Positions 12,890 to 36,796 of a DNA stretch of 38,489 nucleotides are shown in pieces; positions within the stretch are counted from its first letter, which is position 1, and every line of letters begins with the position of its first letter. Where the stretch lies: contig JAICUV010000002.1 of assembly GCA_025935655.1 (NCBI GenBank), forward strand, positions 1-38,489, written 5' to 3'. Below the pieces are notes generated by a model. It was not told the DNA's origin, searched no databases, and saw only the letters and a list, made by a program, of their open reading frames with translations. Source of the DNA: Chloroflexota bacterium. GTDB lineage: Bacteria > Chloroflexota > Limnocylindria > Limnocylindrales > CSP1-4. A program made the translations under genes and the position numbers.

Positions 12890-13073
12890 GGCGCCGCGAT
12901 CGTACAGGCTTCGGGGTTCCCCCGGGTCGGGGACGAGCGTGGGAAGGGGTCCCGGGGGCCGCGTGTGGTAGCCTCCCCGGGACACGCGCACGCGGGCGAG
13001 GCCGCCCGCCGCGACCGGGCGCCGCCCAGACCCGAGGGCCGGATCGCCCGCCACCAGAGAGGTTCTTCACACC

Positions 13074-13733
13074 ATGGCTGACCGTCCCGCGCTCGCGGCC
13101 GAGCGCCGCACCGTGACCGGCAAGGCCGTCTCCCGTCTCCGCGAGGATGGCCGCCTGCCCGGCGTCGTCTTCGGGCACGGCACCGACTCCGAGCCCGTCT
13201 CCATCGACGCCCACGAGTTCGAGCAGCTGCGCAAGCACGCCGGCGCCTCCACCCTCGTCGACCTCAAGGTCGAGGGCGGCAAGGCACGGCCCGTGCTGAT
13301 CAGCGGCATCCAGGTCCACCCGGTGAACCGCCGGCCGCTGCACGTGGACCTGTTCGCCGTCCGGATGACGGAGGAGCTCACCGTCGAGGTCCAGCTCGTG
13401 GGCACGGGCGTCCCGGCCGCGGTCGAGAACGGCGGCACGCTCGTCCACCCGACCTCGAGCGTCAAGGTCCGCGCGCTGCCGGCCAACCTGCCCGACTCGC
13501 TGACGTACGACCTGTCGCCGCTGGTCGACTTCGACACGACGATCACGGTCGCCGACCTCGTCGTGCCGGAAGGCGTCACGATCCAGGCCGACCCGGCCGA
13601 GGTCATCGCCCGCGTCCTTGCGCCGCGCGTCGAGGAGGCCGTCACCGAGGCCGCCGAGGGCGAGGCCGCCGAGGGCGCCGCAGAGGGCGAGTCCACCGAG
13701 GCAGCCGCCGAGGGCGAGTCCGCCGAGGGCTGA
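13074..13733 (+). CDS. rplY: 50S ribosomal protein L25 / general stress protein Ctc
   Basis: RTVTGKAVSRLREDGRLPGVVFGHG and VHPV motifs, and an acidic Ala/Glu/Gly-rich C-terminal tail. GAGAGG SD upstream. Confidence 0.88.
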   Translation: MADRPALAAERRTVTGKAVSRLREDGRLPGVVFGHGTDSEPVSIDAHEFEQLRKHAGASTLVDLKVEGGKARPVLISGIQVHPVNRRPLHVDLFAVRMTEELTVEVQLVGTGVPAAVENGGTLVHPTSSVKVRALPANLPDSLTYDLSPLVDFDTTITVADLVVPEGVTIQADPAEVIARVLAPRVEEAVTEAAEGEAAEGAAEGESTEAAAEGESAEG

Positions 13734-13768
13734 TCCGCGCGGCAGTGCCGCATCAACGTCGCGTTCGG

Positions 13769-13800
13769 AGCCGGCCCCCAGGGCCGGCTTCGTCGTGTGT
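13769..13800 (+). terminator. intrinsic terminator candidate after rplY
   Basis: Perfect 9-bp stem agccggccc / gggccggct with a 3-nt loop (13769-13789), followed by the T-enriched run tcgtcgtgtgtt, 36 nt after the stop. Confidence 0.6.
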
Positions 13801-13983
13801 TGGCCGGTGGTGCGGGTCGCGGCGTGGTTCTGGGTGCCCGTGCGTCGTGCGCAGCGGTCGTGGCCCGGCGGGCGTGCCCGCGCTCACGCGTTCGCTCGCT
13901 CCACGCGTTCGCGCTCCTCGCCGCACCCGCCCGCATCCCCGCGCGCTCCGCACGAGTCGCGGGTCGCCCTTGGGCCGCCCGGC

Positions 13984-14089
13984 GTTCCAACTGGCGGTTG
14001 GGTCGCTCGGTTGGAACACCCGGCGGTCCATCCGTCGACGATCACCCCAGGTGGAACGCGCCTGGTTCCAACCAGCGGTTGGGGCCGCT
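13984..14089. repeat. two copies of a hairpin-forming unit of about 24 nt (GTTCCAAC-NN-GCGGTTGGG...GCT) with additional GTTGGAAC/TGGAAC partners
   Basis: 13984-14007 is gttccaactggcggttgggtcgct and 14065-14089 is gttccaaccagcggttggggccgct. The complementary GTTGGAAC is at 14010-14017 and TGGAAC at 14052-14057. The region has no protein-like ORF. Confidence 0.7.
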
Positions 14090-14233
14090 GCTTGGGTCGC
14101 CACGCGGTCCACGCGGGGCGGGATGCCACGAGTGCGCCGGGTGCGGACTGGAACTGGCCAGGGACCTGGCGGGACCGGACGGAACCACGGCGCGCCGGAC
14201 CACGTGAGCACGCCGCGATCCGAACGCGCGACG

Positions 14234-15100
14234 TCAGCGGGTCCGGACGCCCGAGGCGTACACGATCGGCAGGCGCATCACCAGGTCCTCGGGCCGCATG
14301 GCGTGCAGGCGCTCCAGCAGCCGGTGCTCGAGCGCCTCGCGCTGCTCGGCGGCCATGGTGGCGAACTCGTCCTCGTCGTCGAACCGGGTCACGAAGCCGA
14401 CGTACGCGTCGGGCGTGAACCGGTGCACGAGCTCGTCCGCCCGCGCCCGCGCACCCGAGAAGCCGGCGCGGCGCAGCTGGGCGACCGCGGCCGTGGGGGA
14501 GGGGACGTCATCGTTTCCCGGGTCGTCGTCGACGTCGTCAGCGGCCGCGTCCACATCGTCCTCGTCGTCCTCCCACCGCGGCTCGAGCCCCACGTCCCGC
14601 CGCGCCTCGTCGTAGGCGTCGTCACCCGCGAACCGCTCCCCGCCGCGCAGCCAGGTGACGTACGCCACCCGCCCGCCGGGCCGCAGGACGCGGCGCATCT
14701 CGCGCAGGGCCCGGAACCGCGAGGGCACGAGCTGGAGCACGAACGCCGACAGCACGAGGTCAAACGTGCCGTCCTCGAACGGCAGCCGGTCGGCCAGCGC
14801 CTGCGCGTACCGCAGCCGCGCCGCGTCCCCCGGCTCGAGGGTTGCAGCGATGCGTCGCGCGATCTCGAGCATCCCCGAGGACGCGTCGACGCCGTCGACC
14901 GCCACCGCCGGCCACCGCCGCAGCGCGTCGACCGCCATCGCGCCGGTGCCACAGCCCACGTCGAGGACCCGGCCCGCGCCCGCGGCGACGTCGGCCGCGA
15001 CCTCGTCGAGGAGGCCGAGCGTGCCCGGCCGGTGGACGGGCGACCACCACGCCGCGTACCCCTCCGCGATCCGGTCGTAGCGCGCCTCCTGGTCGGTCAC
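14234..15100 (-). CDS. class I SAM-dependent methyltransferase
   Basis: SAM motif I VLDVGCGTG, post-I acidic residue, and an LRPGG motif. An acidic insert (WEDDEDDVDAAADDVDDD) is present. GTG 15100 is chosen because ATG 15256 would overlap the divergent USP gene's start region. Confidence 0.8.
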   Translation of the reverse strand: MTDQEARYDRIAEGYAAWWSPVHRPGTLGLLDEVAADVAAGAGRVLDVGCGTGAMAVDALRRWPAVAVDGVDASSGMLEIARRIAATLEPGDAARLRYAQALADRLPFEDGTFDLVLSAFVLQLVPSRFRALREMRRVLRPGGRVAYVTWLRGGERFAGDDAYDEARRDVGLEPRWEDDEDDVDAAADDVDDDPGNDDVPSPTAAVAQLRRAGFSGARARADELVHRFTPDAYVGFVTRFDDEDEFATMAAEQREALEHRLLERLHAMRPEDLVMRLPIVYASGVRTR

Positions 15101-15254
15101 CCGCAGATCGTGCCACGTCGCTTTCGGGAACTTCGGCCCGGGTCGCCGGTTCCGGCGGCCGATGGCCCGGCCGGGCACACGGTGGATGCTGCGGAGCGTG
15201 GAGGGGCGTTTCCGGCGGCACGAACCCGCGAACGCGTCCGAAAGGGAGCCAGAC

Positions 15255-15656
15255 ATGAAGCGGATCCTGCTCGCCTACGACGGCACCGAGCCGGCCAAGC
15301 GAGCGCTCGCGCACACGATCCAGCTGGCGACGAGCTTCAACGCGCAGGTCGGCGTCATCAGCGTCGTCCCGCTGCGGGCGAGCCGGAACACCATCGACCC
15401 GTGGGACGATCGGTCCGTCCATGCCGAGGAGCTGCTCGAAGCGCGGTCCGAGCTCCGGCAGGCGGGGATCGAGCCCGAGCTGTATGAGCCGGGCGGCGAC
15501 CCTGCGAAGACCATCGAGCGCCTCGCCGAAGAGCACGACTACGACACGATCATCATCGGCTCGCGCGGGCTCTCCAGTGTCGCCCGGGCGCTGCAGGGCA
15601 GCGTCTCCGAGCACGTCGCCACGCACGCGAACGCCACCGTGGTGGTGGCCCGATGA
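15255..15656 (+). CDS. universal stress protein (UspA family)
   Basis: MKRILLAYDGTEPAKRAL... and the IIIGSRGLSSVARALQGSVSEHV ATP-binding type motif. AAAGGGAG SD lies 7 nt upstream of ATG 15255. Confidence 0.85.
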   Translation: MKRILLAYDGTEPAKRALAHTIQLATSFNAQVGVISVVPLRASRNTIDPWDDRSVHAEELLEARSELRQAGIEPELYEPGGDPAKTIERLAEEHDYDTIIIGSRGLSSVARALQGSVSEHVATHANATVVVAR

Positions 15657-20193: not shown

Positions 20194-20373
20194 GGTCGTG
20201 TACCTCCGATGGGCGCGCTCCCCGCGCCCGGAGCCGCCGCGGATGCGGCGCTGGGGGGACGTGCCGGTGACCCGGCCGGTTCCACGTCCGGATGCTGCGC
20301 CCGCCACCCGCAGCCGGCGCTCCGGGATGTCCCGCAACGCCGGTCGCGTGCTTCCCGTCCCGATCGGGCGCGG

Positions 20374-20379
20374 TATCGT
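20374..20379 (+). promoter_or_regulatory. -10 hexamer TATCGT placed 6 nt before the ligase ATG (leaderless-transcript candidate)
   Basis: It matches the TANNNT pattern. There is no SD between it and ATG 20386. Confidence 0.3.
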
Positions 20380-20385
20380 GCGGCC

Positions 20386-21477
20386 ATGCGACTCCCGTTC
20401 GCGCCCCCCGTGGAGCCCATGCTCGCCAAGGCGAGCGACGCCCTGCCCGAGGGCGACGGCTGGCTGTACGAGCCCAAGTGGGACGGCTTCCGCGCGCTCG
20501 TCTTCCGCGACGGCGACGAGCTGTACATCCAGAGCCGCGACCTCAAGCCCCTCGACCGCTACTTCCCCGAGCTCGCCGAGCCGCTCAAGGCGAACATCCC
20601 CGAGCGCTGCGTCCTCGACGGAGAGGTGGTCATCGCCGGTCCGGACGGGCTGGCGTTCGAGTCGCTGCTCCTGCGCATCCACCCGGCGGCGTCGCGGGTG
20701 AACATGCTGGCCGCGGAGACGCCGGCGAGCTTCGTCGCCTGGGACCTGCTCGCGCTGGGCGACGAGGACCTGCGAGCCGTGCCGCAGGGCGAGCGCCGGG
20801 CCCGGCTGGAGCAGGCGTTCGCGACCGTCCAGCCACCGATCCACCTGACGCCCGCCACCCGGGACCGATCGCTGGCCGCGGACTGGTTCGACCGGTTCGA
20901 GGGCGCGGGCCTCGACGGCGTGGTCGCCAAGCGCCTCGAGGGCACGTACCAGCCGGGCAAGCGGGCGATGCTCAAGATCAAGCACGAGCGCACGGCGGAC
21001 TGCGTGGTCGCCGGGTTCCGGTGGCACAAGAACGGCCCGGGCACCCACGTCGGCAGCCTGCTGCTCGGCCTGTTCGACGGCGAGGGCCACCTCCACCACG
21101 TGGGGATCACCAGCTCGTTCACGTGGGACAGGCGCGAGGCGCTCGTGGCGGAGCTCGCGCCGCTGCGCGAGGGGGCGCTCGAGGGCCACCCGTGGGGCGA
21201 GTGGGCGGAGTGGGCGTCGGCGGGGTCGGCGGACGCGTCCGGGCAGCGGCTCCCGGGCGCGACGAGCCGCTGGAACCGGGGCAAGGACCTGTCGTGGGAG
21301 CCGCTGCGGGCGGAGCGGGTCGTCGAGGTCGCGTACGACCACCTCCAGGGCGACCGATTCCGGCACGCGACGACGTTCCGCCGCTGGCGGCCCGACAAGC
21401 AGCCCGCCGACTGCCGCTACGACCAGCTGGAGACGACGGCGCCGTACGAGCTCGCGCGCATCTTCGGCGGCAGCTGA
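20386..21477 (+). CDS. ligC: ATP-dependent DNA ligase (LigC-type, ligase domain only)
   Basis: Adenylation motif I EPKWDGFR, plus LDGVVAKRL, MLKIKHERT and an OB-fold C-terminus; about 363 aa from ATG 20386. Confidence 0.85.
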   Translation: MRLPFAPPVEPMLAKASDALPEGDGWLYEPKWDGFRALVFRDGDELYIQSRDLKPLDRYFPELAEPLKANIPERCVLDGEVVIAGPDGLAFESLLLRIHPAASRVNMLAAETPASFVAWDLLALGDEDLRAVPQGERRARLEQAFATVQPPIHLTPATRDRSLAADWFDRFEGAGLDGVVAKRLEGTYQPGKRAMLKIKHERTADCVVAGFRWHKNGPGTHVGSLLLGLFDGEGHLHHVGITSSFTWDRREALVAELAPLREGALEGHPWGEWAEWASAGSADASGQRLPGATSRWNRGKDLSWEPLRAERVVEVAYDHLQGDRFRHATTFRRWRPDKQPADCRYDQLETTAPYELARIFGGS

Positions 21478-21514
21478 CGCCCGTGCCCCGCCGGCCGCCC
21501 CCCGAGGCTCCGCG

Positions 21515-22849
21515 ATGATGCCGCAGCTCGACGTGCCGGCCGGCCTGGTGGGGACGCTCGCGATCATCGCGTTCGGCCTCGCGATCGTCGCCATCGTCGT
21601 CGCGCCGATCGTCGCGCGGAGCCGCGGCTCCACGGGCCTCGGTGCCGCGCTCGCGCTCGTCCCCTTCGCCGTCCTGACCGTGGCCGCGGTGCTCGCCGCG
21701 GCCGCCGCCGCCCTGGGGACCGTGGCGAACCAGGCGGCGGGCGTGCGCGAGGTCACGACCGCCGGCCTCGCGCTCATCTGCATCACGCCCGTCCTGGGCG
21801 CCCTGTTCGTCCGCCTGCGGTACGGGCCCACGGGCGATCGCACGTTCCAGCAGCAGATGGCCGGCAACGCCGTGAGCTCGATGCTGCTCGTCGCGATCCT
21901 GTTCGAGGTGCTCGTGGTGACGGGCTTCCTGATCGGCGTCGCGGTCGGGTTCTTCGTGGGCACGCCGCTGCTCGTGGGCCTCGCCTTCGCGGGCATCTCC
22001 GTCCTCGGGACCGCGGGCGCGACGCTGTTCGCGCTCAACAGAGGCGACGCCTTCATCCTCGAGCTCTCGAAGGCCCGCAGGGCGGACCCGTCGAACGCCC
22101 GGGAGGCGATGCTCCGCAACGTGGTCCAGGAGCTGGCGCTGGGGGCGAACCTGCCTATGCCCGAGGTCTACGTCATCGACGCCGGGGCCGCGAACGCGTT
22201 CGCCGTCGGCCGGGACACCACCCACGCCTCGATCGCGGTGACCCGCGGACTGCTCGAGCTCCTGGACCGCGAGGAGCTCCAGGGTGTCGTGGCGCACGAG
22301 CTCGGGCACATCGCGAACCTCGACTCCCGCCACGGGCTCATCGTGGCGCTGCTCGTGGGAGCCGTCGTCGTCCTCACGGACCTGTTCTTCGAGGCCGTCG
22401 TCGAGATGGCGCAGCACCCGTCCATCGGCGGCGACGACATCGGCGAGGTGGTCGCGGGGCTCGTGATGTGGCTCGTGATCTCGCTGCTCGCGATCCTCTT
22501 CGCGGGCACGCTCAAGCTGTTCGCGCCGCTCGCCGCGCGCGCCGTCCAGGCGGCCGTGTCGCGGGACCGCGAGTACCTGGCCGACGCCACGTCAGTGAGC
22601 ATCACCCGCAACCCGGCGGGGCTCGAGTCGGCGCTGCGCAAGCTGGACGCCGACCCGACGCGGCTCCTCGACGCGAACCGCGGCACGCAGCACCTGTGGA
22701 TCGTGAACCCGCTCAAGGAGGCGAGCGAGGGCGGCCACGGCTGGTTCGACACGCACCCGGCGACCGCGGACCGGATCGCGCGCCTGCGCGCGCTCGCCGG
22801 ACAGGACGCCCGTCGCGATGCGGAGCCTTCGGCGGCTGCCGCCACGTAG
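21515..22849 (+). CDS. M48-family zinc metallopeptidase (HtpX-like) with extended polytopic N-terminus
   Basis: HEXXH in VVAHELGHIANLD, a downstream EYLAD glutamate motif, and DTHPATADRI. About 5 hydrophobic helices precede the catalytic domain. Confidence 0.82.
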   Translation: MMPQLDVPAGLVGTLAIIAFGLAIVAIVVAPIVARSRGSTGLGAALALVPFAVLTVAAVLAAAAAALGTVANQAAGVREVTTAGLALICITPVLGALFVRLRYGPTGDRTFQQQMAGNAVSSMLLVAILFEVLVVTGFLIGVAVGFFVGTPLLVGLAFAGISVLGTAGATLFALNRGDAFILELSKARRADPSNAREAMLRNVVQELALGANLPMPEVYVIDAGAANAFAVGRDTTHASIAVTRGLLELLDREELQGVVAHELGHIANLDSRHGLIVALLVGAVVVLTDLFFEAVVEMAQHPSIGGDDIGEVVAGLVMWLVISLLAILFAGTLKLFAPLAARAVQAAVSRDREYLADATSVSITRNPAGLESALRKLDADPTRLLDANRGTQHLWIVNPLKEASEGGHGWFDTHPATADRIARLRALAGQDARRDAEPSAAAAT

Positions 22850-22898
22850 CCGAGGGTGCGCCGCGCGGCCCCTGGTCGGTGCCGCGCCGCGCGCAGGG

Positions 22899-23330
22899 TC
22901 AGGCGCCCTGGGCCCGGGCGACGGCCGCGAGGAGCCGTGGCGTCTCGTCGTGGGCGATCGCGACGATGCGCGTCCCCTCGGCCAGGTCGGCGAGCGTGTA
23001 CGAGGCGGTGAAGTCGTAGACGGGGTCGTGGGCGGCCGTGTGCAGCGACCAGGTCACCGTCGCGTGCGCGATCCCCGGCGTCACCTCCGCGACGTCGAGG
23101 CGCGTGATGGTCGCCCCCGCCACGCCCAGCAGGCGGTACGCGCCGACGATGCGCTGGACCTGGGGCGCCCACGCGTCGGCGGTCGGGACGGACCTGACGG
23201 TGACCCCGTCACCCTCGCCGACGACCTGGACCGGGAACGCATAGCAGCCGGCGATCGCCGCCACGTCGAAGGACTCGAAGGTACGGCGATAGGCGTCGAT
23301 GAACGCCTCGGCGGCGGCGCGGTCAGGCAT
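22899..23330 (-). CDS. NTF2-like / SnoaL-like fold protein
   Basis: About 143 aa, with the N-terminal AAEAFIDAYRRTFESFD helix pattern and alternating beta segments typical of NTF2-like cones. ATG 23330 lies 2 nt after the upstream gene's stop. Confidence 0.5.
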   Translation of the reverse strand: MPDRAAAEAFIDAYRRTFESFDVAAIAGCYAFPVQVVGEGDGVTVRSVPTADAWAPQVQRIVGAYRLLGVAGATITRLDVAEVTPGIAHATVTWSLHTAAHDPVYDFTASYTLADLAEGTRIVAIAHDETPRLLAAVARAQGA

Positions 23331-24813
23331 CGGGCTCCTCGCTGCTGGTGCGGGCACGGCGGGTCGGCTTGCGGCCGGCCATCCACGCGGCGCGCTCGTC
23401 GTCGGACAGGCTGCCCCAGTCGTCCGGGGCGGCGTCCGGGTCCAGCGGTTCCTGGGGCGGGCGCAGGTCCTCCGGGACGTGGATCAGGTTGAGGCGCAGC
23501 CGGTACCAGGCGTAGGCGCGTCCGCGCATCGCGGTCTCGATGACGTCCGCGGGCTCCAGGTGTGCGGCGGCCTCCGGGTGGCGGGCCTTCCAGCGCTCCA
23601 GCCCCTCGTAGACCTCCGCCCTGGTCGGGGCGCGCCCGAGCTCGATCACCGGGATGCTCGACTTCCGGCGACCCGTGGGCGACGGCCGAGATCCCTCCCA
23701 CTCGGTGGTCAGGCCGGCGTTGGGGTCACCCGCGGCGACGGCGGCCGCACGTTGCTCCGCGACCTCGGGCGGGGGACCGCCGTCCTTGCCCCTGCCGGCG
23801 TATTCGTCCGGCTTGCGGCGCATCCTGGAGGGCTGGACGCGGGGCGGCTCGCCCTCCTGCTTGGCGTAGTTCGGGGGCCACGGGGCGTCGCCCTCGCCCT
23901 CCGCCTCGTGGCGCGCCGAGAGCTCCAGGAGGGCGTCGAGCGTGCCCACCGCCTCGTCGATGCCCGCCCCCGCGTCGCCCCGCTGCGCGTAGATCGCGGG
24001 CACGGTGGCGAGGGTGAAGTCCTCCATGACGACGTGCGGCACCTCGTCCCAGCGGAGCGGGAACGAGACCCGGGCGTCTGGCGTGGGCCGCACCGAGTAC
24101 GCGGAGGCGACGGTCCGGTCCTTCGCGTTCTGGTTGTAGTCGAGGAACACGCCGTGGCGCTCCTCCTTCCACCACTTGGAGGTCGCGATCGCCGGCGCCC
24201 GCCGTTCCACGTCCCGGGCGAGGGCCAGCGCGGCGCGACGGACCTGCGGGTACGTCCAGCGGGGCTCGATCCGGACGTTGACGTGGATTCCCCGCGAGCC
24301 GGAGGTCTTGGGCCAGCCGGTCAGGCCCACGGCCACGAGCGACTCCTGGACGACGAGCGCGACCTCGCGCACCTGCGACCAGGGCACGCCCGGGACCGGG
24401 TCCAGGTCCACGCGCAGCTCGTCCGGGTGGTCGAGGTCCTCCGCGCGGACCGGGTGCGGGTTGAGGTCCATGCAGCCCAGGTTCGCGATCCAGGCGAGGC
24501 CCGCGGCTTCGTCCACGACGAGCTCGTCGGCGGTCCGGCCGCTCGGGAACGTCAGCGTGGCGACGCGCATCCAGTCCGGCTTGTTGTCCGGCGCCCGCTT
24601 CTGGAAGAACGGCTCCTTCTCGGCGCCGTCCACGAAGCGCTTGAGCGCCATCGGCCGGCCGCGCACGCCGGTGAGGGCGCCGTCGGCGACCGCGAGGAAG
24701 TACCGGACGAGGTCGAGCTTCGTGTGCCCGGCGCGCGGGAAGTAGACCTTGTCAGGGTTGCTGATCGACACCTCGCGGCCGCCGATCTCGAGGATCTCCT
24801 TGCGGGACGGCAT
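23323..24813 (-). CDS. stand-alone NHEJ primase-polymerase (LigD PolDom-like, AEP superfamily) with long C-terminal extension
   Basis: Motifs SNPDKVYFP, FFQKRAP, DLDP, WPKTSGSRGIHV, FLDYNQNA and SAYSVRP, then PWPPNYAKQEGEPPRVQPSR, then about 150 more residues; 496 aa. Confidence 0.85.
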   Translation of the reverse strand: MPSRKEILEIGGREVSISNPDKVYFPRAGHTKLDLVRYFLAVADGALTGVRGRPMALKRFVDGAEKEPFFQKRAPDNKPDWMRVATLTFPSGRTADELVVDEAAGLAWIANLGCMDLNPHPVRAEDLDHPDELRVDLDPVPGVPWSQVREVALVVQESLVAVGLTGWPKTSGSRGIHVNVRIEPRWTYPQVRRAALALARDVERRAPAIATSKWWKEERHGVFLDYNQNAKDRTVASAYSVRPTPDARVSFPLRWDEVPHVVMEDFTLATVPAIYAQRGDAGAGIDEAVGTLDALLELSARHEAEGEGDAPWPPNYAKQEGEPPRVQPSRMRRKPDEYAGRGKDGGPPPEVAEQRAAAVAAGDPNAGLTTEWEGSRPSPTGRRKSSIPVIELGRAPTRAEVYEGLERWKARHPEAAAHLEPADVIETAMRGRAYAWYRLRLNLIHVPEDLRPPQEPLDPDAAPDDWGSLSDDERAAWMAGRKPTRRARTSSEEPDA

Positions 24814-24830: not shown

Positions 24831-27800
24831 TCACGTCCGGACGATGTGCAGCCGGCCGCGGCGCTCGAACCGGTAGCCCGGCCGCCCGCTGAAGTACTCG
24901 TGCACGGCCGTGCGGCAGCCGGACCACGTGTCGTAGTCGTCGACCACGATCCGACCGCCGATCGCCAGCAGGGGCGCGATTCGGGTCAGACAGGTCATCG
25001 TGGAGGCATACCAGTCGCCGTCGAGGTGCGCGAAGGCGACGGGCTCGTCCAGGACGAGCGTGTCCTCGAACCGCCCCTGGACGAGGTCCACGTTGCTGGG
25101 CCCGACCGGCAGCCCGTGACGCACGAAGGAGTCGGTCACCTCCGCCAGGAGCTCGTCGCGGTAGCCGTAGTAGGTGTCTCCGCCGACGCCCTGGGAGCGA
25201 CCGGCGACGATCGTGGCGTAGCGCTTGTGGACGTCCTCGCCGTCCTTCTCCGACGGCGGCGGGATCATGCCGAACACGTCGTAGACCTTCATCCGCCGCC
25301 CGGGTGCCTTGGCGGCCGCGAGCGTGATCGCCGAGCCGCCACGCGCCGTTCCTGCTTCGATCACGAGGCCCTCGATCCCGTCCGCCTCGACGGCCTGGAC
25401 CATCGCGGCGAGCGTCCGAAGGCTCGTGACGTCGAGATAGCTCAAGTGCTCGGCGCGGACGCCCGCGATGACGCGCTCGATCTCGGGCCCGAGGGGGCTC
25501 GTCACCGGCCCGAGCTCGACCGGGTTGTGAAGCGAGCCCGCCGGTCCGATCCGCTCGTCGCCGCCCGCGGGCGCATCGCCCGCCCGCTCGCGCAACCGCG
25601 CCGCGACCTCGCGCCACCGCGTCTGCTCGAAGGTGAGCGCCGCGTCCCAGGGCTTGCCGAAGGACGCCCAGTGGATGAGCTTCGGCTCCGCCACGTCCTC
25701 CAGCACCGGCATCACGTTCCACCGGGGGTCCACGAGGCCGCGGCGCGGGCCGAGGTAGCCCAGCATCGTGTCCTGGTCGTGGAGCCCGTATCGCTCCACC
25801 CAGCCGAGATAGGTCGACGTGAATCGGTCGCGGCGCATGCGGTCGAGATCCATCACGAGGACGCCGGCGTTGAGCGCAGGGTGCCCGAAGCCGTGTGCGT
25901 GGCTCACCCGGCGGCGGAGCTCCGTCGCCAGGGGCTCCTCGAGACCGCGGCCGGCGCGCTGCCACTGGCTCGCCTCGCTCACGTTCGAGTCGCGTGCCGC
26001 GACGGGGAAGCCACCGAGATCTGTCGCCGCGAGCTCGCACACGTCGCCGAACATCAGCGTGTCGACGTCCAGGTACACGACCCGCGCCACCTCGGTCAGG
26101 ATGTCCGGCAGCAGCAGCCGGTCCATGGTCGAGACGGTGATGTGAGCGGGGACGCGTCGCGGCCTGCCGTCCGTCCCGCCGAAGCTGATGGTGTCGCACG
26201 GCAGGAACGTGATCGGCAGCGACGGGAAGGCGCCCGCGAGCCACGACTGGTACGCATCGCTGAGTCCCCGCGAGAGCACCCACAGCCGCAGCGGTCCGGA
26301 CGCGTTCGCGACGATGGACTCGATGAGCACCGCAGCCGGCGTCGTCAGGTTCTGGTCGTAGGCGAGGACGACATCGGTCACGGCGCCCGGGTCGACGGCG
26401 TCATGGGGCCCGAAGCGGCGCCTGGCGGCCGCGGTCACCGCCACGGCGGCCGCAACGTCGATCGTCGTGGGCTCGTCTTCGACGGGCTCCGCGAAACGCG
26501 CCTTCGCCTCCTCGACCCGGGCAGCCGTCAGCTCCCGCCACAGCTCGTACACCTCGGACGCCGTCGCGCCGCCGAGGATCCGCTCGAACACCGCGGCCGT
26601 GAGGTCGCGGATGCCCTCGCGCATCTCGTCGAGGCGGAGATCGCCCGGCTGCATGCCCGTCAGCCCCGCGAACCGCACGTCGCCGGGGTTCCGCGTCCGG
26701 AACTCCACCGGCACGCCGAGCGAGGTCAGCGGGAGGTACGCGTGGAGGCGGCCGGTCACGACCCGGTCGAGGTCGCGCTGATAGTCGGCGAGCGCTCGGT
26801 CCGCCGCGCGCAGGCCCTCCGCGGCGGTCAGGTAGCGGTACTCGTCCGACTGGTGCCCGTATGTCCGCACGGTCCGGGCGTTGCGGCCCGCGGCGCTCGG
26901 CGGCTGGTCGATGACGCCCACCGCGCCACCGCCGCGGTACGCCTCGGAGCGAGTCGGGAAGAGCGAGTCGACCGTCGACGTGAGACAGCCGCTGAAGAAC
27001 GCGTCGACGCCCGCGCCCAACAGGAGGAACACCGTCGTCCAGTCCCGGCAGCCGACCGGCCCGTGCGCGCGCAGGTACGCCAGCGCCGCGTCGCTGAGCA
27101 TGTCGAGCCGGTTGACGTGGAACGACAGGAACAGCGGCCGGATGGCCGGGTGGTAGGGGAAGTCGTACCGCAGGTCGAACAGCGAGTGCATGTGCCAGCC
27201 GAACGCGATCAGCCACGTTCCGTCCGGCACGTCGCGACCGGTGCTGAAGTCGCGGTCGACCGGGATGAGGTGCAGCGCGCCGCCGACGCCGGGGCGACGG
27301 AGGTCTGCCCTGACCCGACCCTGCAGCTCGGTCGCGACCTCCCCGAGGCCCCCCTCACCGGTGATCGTGACGTCGACGAGGCGCGCGATGTTGCCGACGA
27401 GGGACAGGGTCTGGATGTAGTCGCCGAGGTTCCCCGAGGTGAGCACGTGATCCGGGCTCTTGTAGTCGAGGATGCCGATGGGGATCGACCCGGGCGGCAC
27501 CTGCGCCGGCGCAGGCTCCAGCCATCGTTCGATGAGCGCCAGCGCGTAGCGACGCCGATCGTCGAGCTCGAGCGCCGGCCGTTTGCGGAGCTCCTCGACG
27601 AGCGCTGCGGTCGGTGCCCGGTGGCCCATGGCGAGGAACCGGCCGGCCAGGTCGACGGCCACCGCGGCATCCATCGATCGATCCGGCACCGACACCGCCA
27701 TCGCGACGGCGAGCCCGTCGTCGGTGCCGTCGGCCAGCGCCGCGTCCACGGCCTCCACCGGCACGGTCGCGGCGAGCGTGGCGGGGTCGAGGTCGCGGAA

Positions 27801-28313
27801 TCGCGCCCACGCGCGGTGGAGCTGGCGACGGCGGTGATGGAGGACCCCGTGGCCGATTGCCGAGGCGGTTGCGCCGCCCGGCAGTCGGCCGACGCCCTCG
27901 GCGAGCGACCAGGCGGCGTGGTGCTCGACCTGCTCGGCGAGTGCCGCGACCGCCGCTGCCGTCGCCCGCTCGAGCGACTCGCCGCGCTCGATCGCGTGGG
28001 CGAACACGGCCTCGGCATGGTGTCGGGCGGCGGTCTTGCGGATCCCGGGTCCGGCCGCTGCGTCGGGAGTCGCGGTTCCGTCGCGTCCGAGCACGGCCGT
28101 CGCCAGGCGCGTCCACTCGCCGACGTACCACGAGTCGGGGCGTCGGGCGCCGGATCCGCCGCGGGCCGCACGGCTGCCGCCGTCCCCTCGGCCCACGGTC
28201 GCGCCCAGCGTCGAGATCGCCTTCACGCGGACCCGGCGCAGCGCGCCGCCGCGCGTCTCCGCCCGGGACAGGTCGGCCAGGAGGTGGCGGATCCTGACCC
28301 GGCGTCCGCTCAT
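24831..28313 (-). CDS. four-module fusion protein: unknown helical N-domain + pyruvyl-transferase-like + GT8 glycosyltransferase + TylF/MycF-type O-methyltransferase
   Basis: A single frame with no stop.
- Pyruvyl-transferase-like motifs: GNLGDY (27417-27434), GCRDW...FFSGCLTST, VVTGRLHAYLPLTSLGVPV.
- GT8 motifs: VLAYDQN, DxD in YLDVDT (26061-26069), NAGVLVMDL, HWASFGKPW.
- TylF motifs: IEAGTARGGSA and HLDGDWYAST (25008-25022).
Start set at ATG 28313, because the ORF-track start overlaps the divergent DGPF gene. Confidence 0.75.
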   Translation of the reverse strand: MSGRRVRIRHLLADLSRAETRGGALRRVRVKAISTLGATVGRGDGGSRAARGGSGARRPDSWYVGEWTRLATAVLGRDGTATPDAAAGPGIRKTAARHHAEAVFAHAIERGESLERATAAAVAALAEQVEHHAAWSLAEGVGRLPGGATASAIGHGVLHHRRRQLHRAWARFRDLDPATLAATVPVEAVDAALADGTDDGLAVAMAVSVPDRSMDAAVAVDLAGRFLAMGHRAPTAALVEELRKRPALELDDRRRYALALIERWLEPAPAQVPPGSIPIGILDYKSPDHVLTSGNLGDYIQTLSLVGNIARLVDVTITGEGGLGEVATELQGRVRADLRRPGVGGALHLIPVDRDFSTGRDVPDGTWLIAFGWHMHSLFDLRYDFPYHPAIRPLFLSFHVNRLDMLSDAALAYLRAHGPVGCRDWTTVFLLLGAGVDAFFSGCLTSTVDSLFPTRSEAYRGGGAVGVIDQPPSAAGRNARTVRTYGHQSDEYRYLTAAEGLRAADRALADYQRDLDRVVTGRLHAYLPLTSLGVPVEFRTRNPGDVRFAGLTGMQPGDLRLDEMREGIRDLTAAVFERILGGATASEVYELWRELTAARVEEAKARFAEPVEDEPTTIDVAAAVAVTAAARRRFGPHDAVDPGAVTDVVLAYDQNLTTPAAVLIESIVANASGPLRLWVLSRGLSDAYQSWLAGAFPSLPITFLPCDTISFGGTDGRPRRVPAHITVSTMDRLLLPDILTEVARVVYLDVDTLMFGDVCELAATDLGGFPVAARDSNVSEASQWQRAGRGLEEPLATELRRRVSHAHGFGHPALNAGVLVMDLDRMRRDRFTSTYLGWVERYGLHDQDTMLGYLGPRRGLVDPRWNVMPVLEDVAEPKLIHWASFGKPWDAALTFEQTRWREVAARLRERAGDAPAGGDERIGPAGSLHNPVELGPVTSPLGPEIERVIAGVRAEHLSYLDVTSLRTLAAMVQAVEADGIEGLVIEAGTARGGSAITLAAAKAPGRRMKVYDVFGMIPPPSEKDGEDVHKRYATIVAGRSQGVGGDTYYGYRDELLAEVTDSFVRHGLPVGPSNVDLVQGRFEDTLVLDEPVAFAHLDGDWYASTMTCLTRIAPLLAIGGRIVVDDYDTWSGCRTAVHEYFSGRPGYRFERRGRLHIVRT

Positions 28314-28500
28314 CGCGTGGGCCGCCGCCGGGGCGTGGGATCGGCCTGCCGTGCCGAACAACGCGATCCCGTCGGAAGACGCACCTGCCACCTCTGCTTG
28401 GGCCGCGGCGATCCGACGGCTCGGTCGGAGAGTGTACCGGTGGGTCCGTGACGGCTGCGTCAGCGCCGCCCGGGATCGTGCGCCGCCGCGCCGCGGACGA

Positions 28501-28527
28501 TGTCGATTCCGGCGGTCCGCGTTCGTC
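28501..28527 (+). promoter_or_regulatory. ECF-type promoter candidate TGTCGA-N17-CGTC upstream of the DGPF-sigma operon
   Basis: TGTCGA at 28501-28506 and CGTC at 28524-28527, about 55 nt before ATG 28581. From memory, TGTCGA / CGTC is the motif reported for ECF42 autoregulated promoters. A TACGAT hexamer at 28530-28535 is an alternative -10. Confidence 0.4.
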
Positions 28528-28580
28528 GCTACGATGCACGGGCCGGACGGGCCGGCCTGCTGGACCGGACAGGAGACCGC

Positions 28581-28928
28581 ATGCGTTACCTGCTGCTGAT
28601 CGCGAGCGAGCCGCCCGCCACCCCGCCGAGCGACGCGGACTGGGCCGCGATGCTCGAGCAGTACAACGAGTTCGGGGCGTGGGCCGGCGAGAAGGGCTGG
28701 GTGCTGGGGGGCGAGGCCCTGGAGGACGTGTCCACGGCAACGACCGTGAGCATCCGGGACGGGCAGCGGATCGTGACCGACGGGCCGTTCGCCGAGACGA
28801 AGGAGCACCTGGGCGGCTACTACGTCATCGACGTCCCCAGCCTCGACGACGCGATCGAGACGGCGTTCCGGATCCCGGGTGCGTCCATCGGCAGGATCGA
28901 GATCCGCCCGATCAAGGAGTTCGGCTGA
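28581..28928 (+). CDS. YCII-related / DGPF domain protein
   Basis: DGPFAETKEHLGGYYVIDV signature; about 115 aa. AGGAG SD lies 6 nt upstream of ATG 28581. Confidence 0.85.
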   Translation: MRYLLLIASEPPATPPSDADWAAMLEQYNEFGAWAGEKGWVLGGEALEDVSTATTVSIRDGQRIVTDGPFAETKEHLGGYYVIDVPSLDDAIETAFRIPGASIGRIEIRPIKEFG

Positions 28929-30205
28929 GCGCAGCCCACGGCGAGGTCGTCGCGCGGGTCTTCCGCGAGGAGCACGGACGGGCCATCGCCACGCTGATCC
29001 GGGTCCTCGGCGACTTCGACCTCGCCGAGGAGGCGGTCGCGGACGCGTACGTCACGGCGCTCGAGCGCTGGCCGGCCGACGGCGTCCCGAACAACCCGGG
29101 GGCATGGATCACGACGACCGCTCGCAACCGTGCCATCGACCGGGTCCGCCGCGACCGCGTCTTCGCGGGCAAGGCGGCACTCGTGGCGCGTGACGCGGCG
29201 TTCGACGCCTCGGCCCGCCGGGGCGCGCTGCTGGCGGCGGTGGAGGACGAGATGCACCCGATCCCGGACGACCAGCTGCGCCTGATCTTCACCTGCTGTC
29301 ACCCGGCGCTCGCGCCCGAGACCGCCGTGGCGCTGACGCTGCGGACGCTGGGCGGGCTGACGACGCCGGAGATCGCCCGGGCGTTCCTCGTGCCGGAGCC
29401 GACGCTCGCCCAGCGGCTCGTGCGGGCGAAGAAGAAGATCCGCGACGCCGGGATCGCGTACGAGGTCCCCACCGGGGACCGCCTGGCCGACCGGCTGGAC
29501 GCCGTGCTGCGCGTGCTCTATCTCGTGTTCAACGAGGGCTACGACGCCTCGTCCGGGGACGCGCTCATCCGGCGCGACCTGTGTGCCGAGGCGATCCGCC
29601 TCGCCCGGGTCGTGGCGACGCTGATGCCGTCCGAGCCCGAGGCGCTGGGCCTGCTCGCCCTGCTGCTCCTCACCGACGCGCGGCGGCCGGCACGCGAGGG
29701 CCCGTCGGGCGAGCTCGTGCGGCTCGAGGACCAGGATCGTGGGCGGTGGTCGCGGCCGGCGATCGTCGAGGGTGCCGCGCTCGTCGAGCGTGCGCTGCGC
29801 ATGGGTCGCGTCGGGCCGTACCAGCTCCAGGCGGCGATCGCGGCCGTCCACGACGAGGCGCCGACGGCCGCGGCGACGGACTGGGCGCAGATCCTCGGGC
29901 TGTACGAGGTGCTCCTGCGCGTCGCCCCGTCGCCCGTCGTCGCGCTCAATCGCGCGGTCGCGGTCGCCGAGGTGTCGGGTCCGGCCGCCGGGCTGGCCGC
30001 GGTCGACGCCATGGCCGGCGACCCGTCGCTCGACGGCTACCGGTACTTCCACTCGGCGCGCGCGGATCTCCTGCGGCGCCTGGGGCGCTGGGCCGAGGCC
30101 GCGGACGCCTACGGGCGCGCGCTCGAGCTGGCCGAGAACGGCCCCGAGCGAGCGTTCCTCGAGCGCCGGATCGCGGAGGTCCGCGCTCGCGGGACCGCGG
30201 GCTGA
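28925..30205 (+). CDS. ECF sigma factor with long C-terminal TPR-like extension (ECF42-type)
   Basis: Region 2: FREEHGRAIATLIRVLGDFDLAEEAVADAYVTALERW...NPGAWITTTARNRAIDRVRR. Region 4: TPEIARAFLVPEPTLAQRLVRAKKKI. A helical extension of about 200 aa follows. The 5' end is provisional: the only start-like codon is CTG 28925, overlapping the DGPF stop. Confidence 0.8.
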   Translation: MSAAHGEVVARVFREEHGRAIATLIRVLGDFDLAEEAVADAYVTALERWPADGVPNNPGAWITTTARNRAIDRVRRDRVFAGKAALVARDAAFDASARRGALLAAVEDEMHPIPDDQLRLIFTCCHPALAPETAVALTLRTLGGLTTPEIARAFLVPEPTLAQRLVRAKKKIRDAGIAYEVPTGDRLADRLDAVLRVLYLVFNEGYDASSGDALIRRDLCAEAIRLARVVATLMPSEPEALGLLALLLLTDARRPAREGPSGELVRLEDQDRGRWSRPAIVEGAALVERALRMGRVGPYQLQAAIAAVHDEAPTAAATDWAQILGLYEVLLRVAPSPVVALNRAVAVAEVSGPAAGLAAVDAMAGDPSLDGYRYFHSARADLLRRLGRWAEAADAYGRALELAENGPERAFLERRIAEVRARGTAG

Positions 30206-31383: not shown

Positions 31384-33744
<2,361 letters not shown>

Positions 33745-33828: not shown

Positions 33829-35181
33829 CTACCCCACCGACACCCCGAGCGCGCCGAGCAGCGTCACCCCGAGCAGGATCGCGTTGAGCGCGACGACGAG
33901 CGACACCGCCCCCCAGGCGAGCACGTTGCCCCAGCGCCCGTTGACGTAGGCCCCCATCAGCCGCTTGTCGTTCACCAGCAGCACGAGGAACACGAGCACG
34001 ATCGGGAGGAGCAGGCCCTGCAGGTTCTGGGACCCGACGATGATCCCGACGAGGGATCCCTCGGGCACGAGGAGCACCACGATCGCGCCCAGCGCCAGCA
34101 CGAACGTGTAGATCCCGAAGAACACGGGCGCGTCGCTGAACCGCTTGCCCACGCCGCTCTCCCAGCCGAAGGCCTCGCAGATCACGAACGCCGTGGAGAT
34201 CGGCATGATCGTCGCCGCCAGCACCGAGGCCCCGAACAGCCCGATCCCGAACAGCACCTCGGCGAAGGGGCCGGCGACCGGTTCCAGCGCCTTGGCGGCG
34301 TCCGCGGCCGACGTGATCGTGAGCGCCGCCCCGCCGGCCACGACCGCGGCCGCGGTGGCCACCACGATGAACACCGCGATGACGTTGGTCCAGACGGACC
34401 CGACGACCGCGTCTGCCTGCTCGAGCCGCAGCTCCTCCTCGCCGATGCCCTTCTCCGCCACCGCGCTCTGCAGGTAGAACTGCATGTACGGGGTGATGGT
34501 CGTGCCGACGACGGCGACGAGCAGCAGCAGCGTCGCGGGGTCGAGCGGCAGCGTCGGGGTCACGAACGCCTTGAACACGGGCGTCCAGTCGTCGGTCGCC
34601 ATGATCGCGGCGATGGGGTAGGCGAGGAACACCAGCATCACGAGCAGGAACACGCGCTCCACGATCCGGTACGACCCGAACAGCACCAGGCTCCAGATCG
34701 CGACAGCCACCACCGGGACCGTGACGATCTTGGGGATGCCGAAGATGTCCAGCGCCGCCGCCGCGCCGGCCATGTTCGCGATCGTGTTGGCGACGTTCGC
34801 CAGCAGCAGCACGCCCATCGCGAACACGGTCCAGCGGACCCCGAACCGCTCCCGGATCAGGTCGGACAGGCCCTGCCCCGTGATGACGCCGAGCCGCGCC
34901 ACCATCTCCTGGACGATCGCGAGGATCAGGATCGTCAGCGGGAAGATCCAGAGCATCGTGAGGCCCGTCTCGGCGCCCAGCACGGAATAGGTCGTGAGGC
35001 CACCGGCGTCGTTGCCGGCGACGCCCGCGATGATCCCGGGTCCCATGACGGCGAGGAACGCGAGCAGCCCGCGGCGGCGGAAGCGGCCGCGGAGACGCGG
35101 GACGGGAACGTCCGGGAGGCGCGAGGCGACCCGGCCGCGCTGCGCGACCACCATGTCCCGCAGGCCCCGCCCGATGGTCAC
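33829..35181 (-). CDS. NRAMP-fold cation transporter with non-canonical metal site (NRMT-like candidate, not a typical MntH)
   Basis: NRAMP signatures QEMVARLGVITGQGLSDLIRERF and LFGIGLFGASVLAA, with 11-12 TM helices. TM1 reads NDAGG (34999-35013) instead of DPGN. TM6 reads GTTITPY (34486-34506) instead of GAxxMPH. GTG 35181 overlaps the upstream stop (GTGA); ATG 35154 is the alternative. Confidence 0.8.
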   Translation of the reverse strand: MTIGRGLRDMVVAQRGRVASRLPDVPVPRLRGRFRRRGLLAFLAVMGPGIIAGVAGNDAGGLTTYSVLGAETGLTMLWIFPLTILILAIVQEMVARLGVITGQGLSDLIRERFGVRWTVFAMGVLLLANVANTIANMAGAAAALDIFGIPKIVTVPVVAVAIWSLVLFGSYRIVERVFLLVMLVFLAYPIAAIMATDDWTPVFKAFVTPTLPLDPATLLLLVAVVGTTITPYMQFYLQSAVAEKGIGEEELRLEQADAVVGSVWTNVIAVFIVVATAAAVVAGGAALTITSAADAAKALEPVAGPFAEVLFGIGLFGASVLAATIMPISTAFVICEAFGWESGVGKRFSDAPVFFGIYTFVLALGAIVVLLVPEGSLVGIIVGSQNLQGLLLPIVLVFLVLLVNDKRLMGAYVNGRWGNVLAWGAVSLVVALNAILLGVTLLGALGVSVG

Positions 35182-36488
35182 CCGCGGCCCTCGCCGGCCG
35201 CGGCCGGCGTCTTCGGCTCGTCGTCGCGGTCCGCGCGCGCGAACACGCGCGGCAGGCGTCGCCGCCACGCGCTGGGCGCGACGGTGTCGATGGCGTCGTC
35301 CACGGTGACGATCCCCACGAGCAGCCCCTCGTCGTCGACGACCGGCACCGCGAGCAGGTTGTAGTGGGCGATGGTCTCCGCCACGGACTCGGCGGGCTCG
35401 AGAACCCCGACCGCGACCGGGCCGTCGATCATCACGTCCGCGACCGCGGACTCCGGCCGGGCGACGATGAGGTCGCGCAGCGACAGGACGCCCACCAGGC
35501 GCCCGTCGTCGTCGGTGACGTAGACGTAATAGATCGTCTCGGCGTCGGGCTCGAGCTCGCGCAGCTTCTCGATCGTCTGGGCCGCCGTGAGCTCCGCCGG
35601 GACGGCGACGAACTCCGTGGTCATGAGGCCGCCCGCCGAGTCCTCCGGGAACGCCAGCAGGTCACGGACCTCGTCCGCCTCGTCGCTCTCCATGAGGGCG
35701 AGGATCTCGTCGCGCGAGCGGTCGGACAGGTCGGCCACGAGGTCCGCGGCGTCGTCCGGGCTCATCTCCTCGAGGATGTCGGCGGCCCGGCCCGGCTCGA
35801 GGTCCTCCAGGACCTCCACCTGGGTGTCCGGCTCCATCTCCTCGACCACGTCGGCCAGCGCCTCGTCGTCCAGCGTGGCGAGCACGCCCAGCCGGTCGCG
35901 CGGCGTCAGCTCCTCGATGATCGCGGCGAGGTCCGCCGGGTGGAGCTCCGCGAGCTTCGCGTGCGGGACGCGCAGGCGGACGGAGGCGATCGTGGAGTCG
36001 AGCGGGTCCACGTCCTCCCAGTCGATGTACCGCTCGGGCACGCCGGCGCGGACGTTGCGCGCGATCGTCCGGAACGCGCCCTCCAGCCCGAGCCGCCGGA
36101 ACAGGCCCGCCGCCCCGACGTCGACGGCGACCACCCGCAGGCGACCCTCGACCTCGTCGAGGCTGACGTCGTTGACCCGGATGACCTTGCGCCCCTCGAT
36201 GTCGACGATCTGCTTGTCCAGCAGGTCGGCCTTGAGCAGGATCTCGTCCTGGCGCTGCCGGAACTTGCCGATGTCGATGGTCCGGACGCGCAGCAGCGCG
36301 CCGGTCTCGTCGAGGGTCCGGACGTTGTGCCAGGGCAGGAAGATGTTCCGGCGGTCGGTGCGCGCGACGAGGCCGGTGACCGGCGGGTATCGGTCACCGA
36401 TGGCCACGATGAGGTCGGCGATCGTGCCGAGCGGCTCGCCGGACGGGTCGCGTACCGGCAGGCCGATGCACTGGCTGAGGAAGCGCAT
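35178..36488 (-). CDS. soluble PRC-barrel + MgtE N-domain + CBS-pair protein (MgtE cytoplasmic module without pore)
   Basis: PRC-like N-terminus (IGLPVRDPSGEPLGTIADLIV; IVDIEGRKVIRVNDVSL). MgtE_N acidic helices (LHPADLAAIIEEL...EEMEPDTQVEVLEDLEPGRAADILEEMSPDDAADLVADL). Two CBS motifs (GGLMTTEFVAVP...GRLVGVLSLRDLI; LLAVPVVDDEGLLVGIVTVDDAI). No hydrophobic helix after the CBS pair. Confidence 0.82.
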   Translation of the reverse strand: MRFLSQCIGLPVRDPSGEPLGTIADLIVAIGDRYPPVTGLVARTDRRNIFLPWHNVRTLDETGALLRVRTIDIGKFRQRQDEILLKADLLDKQIVDIEGRKVIRVNDVSLDEVEGRLRVVAVDVGAAGLFRRLGLEGAFRTIARNVRAGVPERYIDWEDVDPLDSTIASVRLRVPHAKLAELHPADLAAIIEELTPRDRLGVLATLDDEALADVVEEMEPDTQVEVLEDLEPGRAADILEEMSPDDAADLVADLSDRSRDEILALMESDEADEVRDLLAFPEDSAGGLMTTEFVAVPAELTAAQTIEKLRELEPDAETIYYVYVTDDDGRLVGVLSLRDLIVARPESAVADVMIDGPVAVGVLEPAESVAETIAHYNLLAVPVVDDEGLLVGIVTVDDAIDTVAPSAWRRRLPRVFARADRDDEPKTPAAAGEGRG

Positions 36489-36680
36489 GGCTGGCCACCT
36501 GGTGTGGGCGGGTCGAACCCGCCGCGGTGGCTGGACCCGGGCGCAGCCGGGCCCGTCAGCGAACGGGCAGGACCCTGTGGCTGCCGGCAGGACGGCCGGC
36601 GGAACTAGGTCCGGTCTCCACGATGGGAGCAATCCTCGTGCGGTGCTGAACGCCCCGAAGCCGTGTCCGGAACGGGGGCA
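36489..36680 (-). promoter_or_regulatory. long structured 5' leader with an SD-sequestering helix (candidate cis-regulatory RNA)
   Basis: About 190 nt lie between the predicted TSS and ATG 36488. GCCACC (RNA copy of 36531-36526) can pair with GGUGGC (36499-36494), which overlaps the AGGUGG SD. It encloses the hairpin GGCGGG-uucga-CCCGCC (36523-36507). Further GC hairpins lie upstream, for example GCCGGC-cguccu-GCCGGC. Confidence 0.4.
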
Positions 36681-36686
36681 GATCCG

Positions 36687-36715
36687 ACTGTATGCCCGTG
36701 CCGCGAGGTGGTCAA
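36687..36715 (-). promoter_or_regulatory. sigma-70-type promoter TTGACC-N17-TACAGT
   Basis: On the minus strand, TTGACC is at 36715-36710 and TACAGT at 36692-36687, with a 17-nt spacer. It points at the MgtE_N/CBS gene about 200 nt downstream. Confidence 0.55.
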
Positions 36716-36796
36716 CCGTGCTCGGCGGGTGCGCGCGGGACCGGGTTGCGCACGCGCGGCACGCGGCGCACAATGGGCTCTGCACATGTGCCCGGC

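Follow-up and report, generated by a model that had tools for sequence, protein, structure and literature searches.

Fusion of a glycosyltransferase to a modifying or terminating domain is a known theme, exemplified by WsaE, WbdD, WbbB and WbbM. WsaE combines a methyltransferase with two rhamnosyltransferases, WbdD is a kinase/methyltransferase with a coiled-coil ruler, and WbbB is likewise a multidomain terminator or modifier, each in an ABC-transporter-dependent pathway. WbbM likewise has two modules, serves an ABC-transporter-dependent galactan pathway and adds alpha-galactopyranose (alpha-Galp) next to galactofuranose (Galf). Ketal-pyruvylation, in turn, makes bacterial walls negatively charged and equips them with ligands to which surface proteins bind. 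To our knowledge, few pyruvyltransferases have been characterized, and those are single-domain. Two of them are WbbZ (6x1l), the terminal ketal-pyruvyltransferase of Klebsiella pneumoniae O1b, and Pvg1p (5ax7) of Schizosaccharomyces pombe, both proteins of about 260 to 400 residues. Here, we show that positions 24831 to 28313 (minus strand) of a 38,489-nucleotide stretch of contig JAICUV010000002.1 from a Chloroflexota bacterium, hereafter the window, are one genuine coding frame with four modules: a helical N-terminal domain, a pyruvyltransferase-like domain, a GT8 glycosyltransferase and a TylF-type O-methyltransferase. We favor, at a probability of roughly 60%, a role in the cytoplasm in which the enzyme attaches an alpha-hexose to a glycopolymer of the cell wall and both ketal-pyruvylates and O-methylates it. 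Each catalytic domain can be assigned to a known family, and their combination is common in databases and under-annotated. In the literature, we found no description of a pyruvyltransferase-glycosyltransferase (GT8) fusion or of a TylF-teichoic acid enzyme.

The gene and its modules

The window is about 74% G+C, and long open reading frames (ORFs) therefore arise by chance on both strands. The minus-strand frame that ends at 24831 meets no stop upstream until 28808. Within it, a G+C content of 0.85 to 1.0 at the third codon position (GC3) and a low one at the second position (GC2) run unbroken from about 28360 to 24831. The coding signal vanishes upstream of 28313, and a YCII gene on the opposite strand begins at 28500. 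Because the GC3 pattern is lost there, we take the ATG at 28313 as the start, which gives 1160 codons plus a stop (24831 to 24833) with no frameshift or stop inside the frame. A metagenome protein (P0001) is 99% identical to the product, equal in length and identical in its start, and an N-terminal consensus that is kept in relatives (RLxxxLxRxxTR) begins at residue 8. Thus, the single ORF of about 1160 residues proposed in an earlier note on this DNA, made from the sequence alone, is indeed one uninterrupted frame. A plus-strand ORF at 24846 to 28451 (1201 residues) was rejected as the gene, as its GC3 pattern is wrong and marks it as a high-GC shadow ORF.

That the fusion might be the product of an assembly or frameshift error, a concern raised in the earlier note, is ruled out by the GC3 frame, by P0001 and by recurrence in independent genomes. 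We searched 68 independent genome loci with hidden Markov models (HMMs) built on the clade of the window. The identical N-to-C architecture is a single ORF in 13 of them, and it is also found in at least 37 protein clusters. Some copies are broken. In L002, L014, L023, L027, L057, L061, L062 and L069, loci from several long-read soil metagenome-assembled genomes (MAGs), the homologue is split across shifted frames while its domains remain continuous without a gap, a pattern that suggests homopolymer frameshift errors or pseudogenes, not true gene fission.

Two of the catalytic modules were recognized directly by Pfam, and the earlier note had named both correctly. The GT8 retaining glycosyltransferase (25599 to 26393, minus strand; residues 641 to 905) matches PF01501 over residues 648 to 891, with 83.5 bits against a cut-off of 24.3 (E 2e-23; profile positions 2 to 251 of 253). 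The C-terminal TylF/MycF/NovP-type sugar O-methyltransferase, dependent on S-adenosylmethionine (SAM) and metal (24834 to 25526, minus strand; residues 930 to 1160), matches PF05711 over residues 965 to 1140, with 83.5 bits against a cut-off of 23 (E 2e-23). An NCBIfam scan of the entire protein returned no family. Among PDB sequences, the GT8 domain matches LgtC (1g9r) and the C-terminal GT8 domain of WbbM (6u4b), the Klebsiella D-galactan I synthase, and aligns with both. It shares with them the retaining GT8 fold with a DxD (D749-V-D751, within YLDVDT at 747 to 752) and an HxxGxxKPW (H881-WASFG-K887-PW, 881 to 889), and its NAGV (815 to 818, within NAGVLVMDL at 815 to 823) is intact as well. 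D751 and D757 are almost invariant among relatives. GT8 enzymes are retaining and hence make alpha linkages, and the domain is predicted to transfer a hexose from a UDP-sugar with retention. The sequence resemblance to LgtC and WbbM is low (E about 1e-8), however, and WbbM pairs its GT8 domain with a second glycosyltransferase (DUF4422/GT111) rather than with a pyruvyltransferase or a methyltransferase.

The methyltransferase domain matches MycF and NovP in the PDB sequence search. Its motifs EAGTARGGS (986 to 994), LDGDWY (1097 to 1102, within LDGDWYAST at 1097 to 1105) and VVDDYD (1123 to 1128) have as counterparts ETGVWRGG, MDGDSY and IIDDYC in MycF, and the alignment keeps both the E-x-G-x-x-RGG of the SAM site and the LDGDxY and DDY that hold the three acidic metal ligands. 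TylF, MycF and NovP are stand-alone enzymes that act on macrolide or aminocoumarin deoxysugars, whereas the TylF domain of this family is fused or adjacent to a glycan enzyme with no antibiotic cluster nearby. All of the motifs quoted in the earlier note are in place, including those of the middle module (GNLGDY at 294 to 299, GPVGCRDW at 418 to 425, FFSGCLTST at 439 to 447 and RLHAY at 522 to 526), and catalytic motifs are intact in all three enzyme domains.

For the N-terminal region, which had been left unassigned, a structural model suggests a basic tail followed by a probable TPR-like repeat of helices. The tail (28134 to 28313, minus strand; residues 1 to 60) is an Arg-rich helix at residues 2 to 40 followed by a disordered Gly/Arg linker; AlphaFold2 placed helices at 2 to 16 and 18 to 40 with a predicted local confidence (pLDDT) of 75 to 82, and pLDDT falls below 50 over residues 37 to 60. 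The tail carries 15 lysines and arginines against 4 acidic residues and is non-amphipathic. An N-terminal amphipathic membrane helix was rejected on the grounds that the hydrophobic moment is near the mean of the protein. The repeat domain itself (27498 to 28133, minus strand; residues 61 to 272) was modeled as a stack of 12 helices, with pLDDT above 90 for residues 90 to 265. For the N-terminal model, Foldseek returned nothing but TPR proteins, all at E of 0.25 or more and none significant, and the Pfam scan of the protein gave no TPR match. An HMM of the helical domain matches most family members, and in P0205, a distant member, genuine TPR repeats precede the core. The protein has no signal peptide and no transmembrane segment and is therefore taken to be cytoplasmic and soluble.

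The putative pyruvyltransferase domain

Between the helical repeat and the GT8 domain lies the middle module (26649 to 27497, minus strand; residues 273 to 555), joined to GT8 by three long linker helices (26394 to 26648, minus strand; residues 556 to 640; helices 287 to 308, 313 to 336 and 348 to 362 of the AlphaFold2 model, corresponding to residues 559 to 634). Sequence and model together indicate a divergent PS_pyruv_trans domain with a GT-B-like fold, a putative ketal-pyruvyltransferase dependent on phosphoenolpyruvate (PEP), like CsaB, Pvg1p, WbbZ and WcfO of the PF04230 family. We make the assignment because of the Pfam matches of relatives, the fold and the motifs, and not because of the PF04230 score of the window protein itself. 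PF04230 matches 10 of 32 full-length relatives at E of 1 or less, with scores of 28.0 bits in P0094 and 51.6 bits in P0144 (cut-off 25.3), and the profile of the window's middle domain finds P0144 at E 1.7e-118. An AlphaFold2 model of the domain built with 14 homologues (pLDDT 86; predicted template-modeling score, pTM, 0.86) consists of two Rossmann-like halves, the fold shared by WbbZ and Pvg1p. Foldseek matched the model to WbbZ (6x1l; probability 0.98, TM-score 0.50 on the target) and to Pvg1p (5ax7; probability 0.96, TM-score 0.42).

The motifs tell a similar story. Glycan pyruvyltransferases carry NxGD, Rxxx(S/T) and a conserved His (PMC10629545), and Pvg1p and CsaB bind PEP with an R-x-H (PMC10435577). 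The middle domain has N295-L-G297-D298, R423-DWT-T427 and R522-L523-H524 in the same order and with spacing similar to that of known pyruvyltransferases, and these residues are invariant or at least 90% kept in 32 close and 62 distant relatives; R547 is a further motif residue. The correspondence is judged by motif pattern and order, by spacing and by location at strand-to-helix turns, not by residue-level superposition; in those terms, WbbZ, Pvg1p and the window domain have NxGD, Rxxx(S/T) and (R-x-)H in common. Moreover, the middle domain is the best-conserved portion of the whole family, and its invariant residues include G372, W373, P419, G421, C422, R423, D424 and L523. Unlike WbbZ and Pvg1p, the domain is embedded in a longer chain, has an extra disordered loop (residues 373 to 386) and is too divergent for PF04230.

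Several results weigh against the assignment. The Pfam scan (E of 1 or less) found no PF04230 match in the window protein, so that what the earlier note called a pyruvyl-transferase-like module is borne out by relatives, structural neighbors and motifs but not by that profile. The middle-domain profile run against all PDB sequences returned only noise (E 0.88). An hhalign comparison of the profile with a single Escherichia coli WcaK sequence left the catalytic region unaligned, but a single-sequence template and a shallow query profile (Neff, the effective number of sequences, 2.2) make that comparison uninformative. Finally, the best Foldseek matches in the PDB are UDP-GlcNAc 2-epimerases, followed by 6x1l and 5ax7 and then by GT-B glycosyltransferases, and the TM-scores are modest (0.36 to 0.50). 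These same results could be read to mean that the middle domain is some other GT-B-fold enzyme, whether a second glycosyltransferase, an epimerase-like protein or an inactive one, and that the whole is a two-glycosyltransferase protein with a methyltransferase. WbbZ, however, is a genuine pyruvyltransferase, and its structural neighbors are dominated by epimerases as well (PMC10629545). Moreover, WbbZ and Pvg1p are themselves among the matches, close members exceed the PF04230 gathering score, and the NxGD, Rxxx(S/T) and R-L-H signatures are invariant or almost so. We consider another GT-B activity improbable and retain ketal-pyruvyltransferase as the putative function.

The family and its genomic settings

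The four-module architecture, which the earlier note did not recognize, is far from rare. A HMMER scan of 1.84 billion cluster representatives (50% identity clusters) with the middle-domain profile returned 2860 proteins at E of 1e-3 or less, 1985 at 1e-10 or less and 372 at 1e-30 or less. The best 150 matches are mostly of 800 to 950 residues with the domain at about residues 230 to 640, the arrangement of a helical N-domain, pyruvyltransferase and GT8, and these three modules are the core of a large, widespread family of at least 372 clusters at the strictest threshold. The form that also contains TylF makes up at least 37 clusters (90% identity) that are 55 to 73% identical to the window protein. 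Hosts include soil MAGs labeled Chloroflexia, Candidatus Limnocylindrales and Actinomycetota, and cultured Nocardioides (N. daejeonensis among them), Demequina, Promicromonospora, Cellulomonas gilvus, Xylanimonas, Janibacter, Citricoccus and Aeromicrobium; a Rhodoblastus MAG also carries a member. Database labels for these proteins read only "glycosyltransferase (family 8)" or "TylF/MycF/NovP-related O-methyltransferase". The core is elaborated in several ways: P0144 (1615 residues) has two tandem pyruvyltransferase-GT8 units, P0147 (1679 residues) places a GT2 and a GT-D-like domain with the core, P0205 (2398 residues) joins about 1400 residues of TPR repeats and two GT8 domains to it, and P0255 and P0192 have a coiled coil, the core and, in the C-terminal place that TylF takes elsewhere, another kind of class-I methyltransferase.

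How the methyltransferase is connected to the core varies. An orthologous TylF (HMM E about 1e-100) was found in the same ORF or contiguous with it in 13 of the 68 loci. It is a separate but adjacent gene in 18 more, 17 immediately upstream on the same strand and 1 convergent downstream. L074 has a split form of the window arrangement, in which a separate TylF gene overlaps the GT8 stop codon. TylF is thus fused to the core in one clade and encoded next to it in another, and in further members an unrelated methyltransferase stands in its place; together, these patterns show that methylation accompanies the core repeatedly but not obligatorily. We conclude that genetic linkage of the three activities is conserved.

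Relatives of the gene are found amid genes for wall glycans. In L050 and L043 of Nocardioides and in L075, the neighbors of the gene are TagF-type glycerophosphotransferases, one of which is fused to a GT2, and a sulfotransferase, with or without an IspD-SDR gene of the CDP-ribitol type, and by gene content these are teichoic-acid clusters. In L076, it is accompanied by a GT2, a UDP-galactopyranose mutase (Glf), GlfT2, TylF, a second paralogue and an ABC2-type exporter, and Glf and GlfT2 beside the family gene parallel the Galf setting of WbbM. The L076 paralogue (12796 to 15468, minus strand) is a pyruvyltransferase-like plus GT8 protein of 890 residues, tail-to-tail with the first copy and flanked by TylF/GlfT2/Glf on one side and the ABC2 exporter on the other. 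In Cellulomonas gilvus (L078; CP002665, region 1223826 to 1236549), the order is GT4, UDP-GlcNAc 2-epimerase, GT2, AT3-SGNH acyltransferase, GT2, GT4, the family gene, SpoIID and an amidase, and in Demequina (L065), an AT3-SGNH acyltransferase adjoins the gene. Every informative context that we found appears, from its genes, to be a cell-wall or exported glycan cluster.

The same contexts bear on whether the enzyme is used once or repeatedly. Pyruvylated teichoic acids are documented in the walls of actinomycetes, as is an alpha-(1->3)-4,6-Pyr-galactan (PMC6801904). The GT8 and pyruvyltransferase domains could act as an iterative polymerase that builds a pyruvylated alpha-hexose homopolymer, such as a ->3)-alpha-4,6Pyr-Galp-(1-> galactan, with TylF methylating units or the terminus. 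Polymers of this kind occur in walls of Promicromonospora citrea, the genome of which lay outside our comparison, and in Methylobacterium exopolysaccharide (PMC6801904), and family members are present in Promicromonospora and in the Rhodoblastus MAG. Two pyruvyltransferase-GT8 units in one chain of P0144, the pair of neighboring paralogues beside an ABC exporter in L076 and the alpha linkages expected of a retaining GT8 also fit repeated use. A single glycosyltransferase domain gives no sign of processivity on its own, however, and in the teichoic-acid clusters of L050 and L075 polymerization clearly falls to the TagF-like proteins. We regard polymerization as rather unlikely, and note that it overlaps with the wall-decorating enzyme that we favor and differs from it solely in iterative versus single use.

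Whether the target is a wall polymer at all must also be asked of the window, where the gene is an orphan. It lies outside any glycan cluster, between a YCII/ECF (extracytoplasmic function)-sigma pair and LigD-type genes of nonhomologous end joining (NHEJ), as it does in L004, the closest syntenic relative; L001, L003 and L077 hold other orphan copies. Orphan copies, the solubility of the protein and the antibiotic-sugar substrates of characterized TylF-family members would suit a target other than the wall, be it a cytosolic methylated polysaccharide (an option in the earlier note), a glycolipid, a secondary-metabolite sugar or a protein. No biosynthetic gene cluster and no genes of the methylglucose lipopolysaccharide (MGLP) or methylmannose polysaccharide (MMP) type were found near any locus examined, however, and a pattern-limited genome scan returned no mycobacterial homologues. 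Moreover, each informative context is a cell-wall or exported glycan cluster. Thus, the cytosolic polysaccharide is unsupported, the contexts of relatives point to exported cell-wall glycopolymers, and we give a non-wall target only a slim chance, the lowest of the alternatives.

The rest of the window offers little guidance. Downstream on the same strand and after a gap of 17 nucleotides is a stand-alone LigD primase-polymerase (23323 to 24813, minus strand), followed by a 152-residue ORF without a Pfam match (22899 to 23357, minus strand), an M48 peptidase (21515 to 22849, plus strand) and an ATP-dependent DNA ligase (20209 to 21477, plus strand). Positions 20209 to 24813 make up a split NHEJ module, and the same block stands behind the homologue in L004. 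A functional tie to the adjacent LigD was considered and rejected, since the arrangement recurs in L004 but is absent in all other relatives and is best described as clade-specific synteny. Divergent from the gene are the YCII-domain gene and, directly after it, an ECF sigma factor with DUF6596 and a TPR C-terminus (28500 to 30205, plus strand); the pair is also found about 6 kb from the homologue in L003. Farther away are a 786-residue protein with two ABC ATPase parts, a CXXCXGXG zinc-finger match and no membrane domain (31384 to 33744, plus strand), which looks like a soluble ATPase of the UvrA-like or ABC-F type, and an Nramp metal transporter adjoining a soluble protein with MgtE_N, CBS and PRC-barrel domains but no MgtE membrane domain (33829 to 36785, minus strand). 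A sugar-nucleotidyltransferase, a PASTA Ser/Thr kinase and then FolC-like ligase, FolP and FolB genes (847 to 3736 and 5931 to 8841, plus strand) are housekeeping genes about 20 kb away. No glycan cluster was found within the window, and its remaining genes are housekeeping.

Proposed function and significance

How the four modules may work together can be proposed. GT8 would transfer an alpha-hexose, most likely galactose or glucose from a UDP-sugar, to a lipid-linked cell-wall glycopolymer or a side chain of one. The PS_pyruv_trans-type domain would then use PEP to attach pyruvate as a ketal to a sugar of the GT8 product, typically at positions 4 and 6, and the TylF domain would use SAM and a divalent metal to methylate a remaining hydroxyl. 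The TPR-like repeat and basic tail may serve as a scaffold or target the protein to partner enzymes, to an anionic polymer or to the membrane. The outcome would be an alpha-hexose unit that is both acidic and methylated, either a repeated decoration or a cap at the nonreducing end, on a polymer made at the cytoplasmic face and later exported. We infer the donor sugars, the acceptor, the order of reactions, the role as cap or repeat and the wall polymer target in the window organism. WbbZ provides a precedent on two counts, as it works on a cytoplasmic glycan destined for later export and shows that pyruvate can terminally cap an ABC-transporter-dependent glycan (PMC10629545).

On the other side of the scale, the window copy is an orphan as described above, TylF lies outside the flanks of the gene in 37 of the 68 loci, and family members appear to be experimentally uncharacterized. 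We know of no glycan structure for the host. Nonetheless, the inference in the earlier note that one polypeptide would add a hexose, methylate it and possibly pyruvylate it is still the best reading, once the cytosolic polysaccharide is set aside. Its remark that such activities are normally encoded by separate genes was overstated, in light of the glycosyltransferase-modifier fusions with which we began.

WsaE, WbdD and WbbB share a logic with the window protein, in that one cytoplasmic polypeptide joins a glycosyltransferase to a helical spacer and to an activity that caps or modifies the glycan, and some family members resemble them further in having coiled-coil N termini and class-I methyltransferase C termini. 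Their domains belong to other families, however, and none has a pyruvyltransferase. A chain-termination or ruler role for the window protein would be an analogy. We speculate, tentatively, that the family is an "add-and-finish" enzyme class for Gram-positive-type walls, in which a pyruvyltransferase is physically coupled to a retaining glycosyltransferase, and here to an O-methyltransferase as well. Such enzymes might either polymerize a pyruvylated alpha-glycan in a self-sufficient manner or add a pyruvate/methyl cap that ends growth and licenses export, in which event the helical N-domain would be a spacer or ruler. If true, the family would be the equivalent, in actinobacteria and Chloroflexota, of the O-antigen systems of Gram-negative bacteria that involve WbdD, WbbB and WbbZ.

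Recognition of the family would correct the "GT8" and "TylF-related methyltransferase" annotations, which overlook the pyruvyltransferase module. The family would also supply a natural fusion for studies of substrate channeling between glycosyltransferases and modifying enzymes. Ultimately, it would tie the alpha-hexose, pyruvate ketal and O-methyl marks of actinomycete wall polymers to one gene and would open to genetics wall structures whose sole use to date has been as chemotaxonomic markers.

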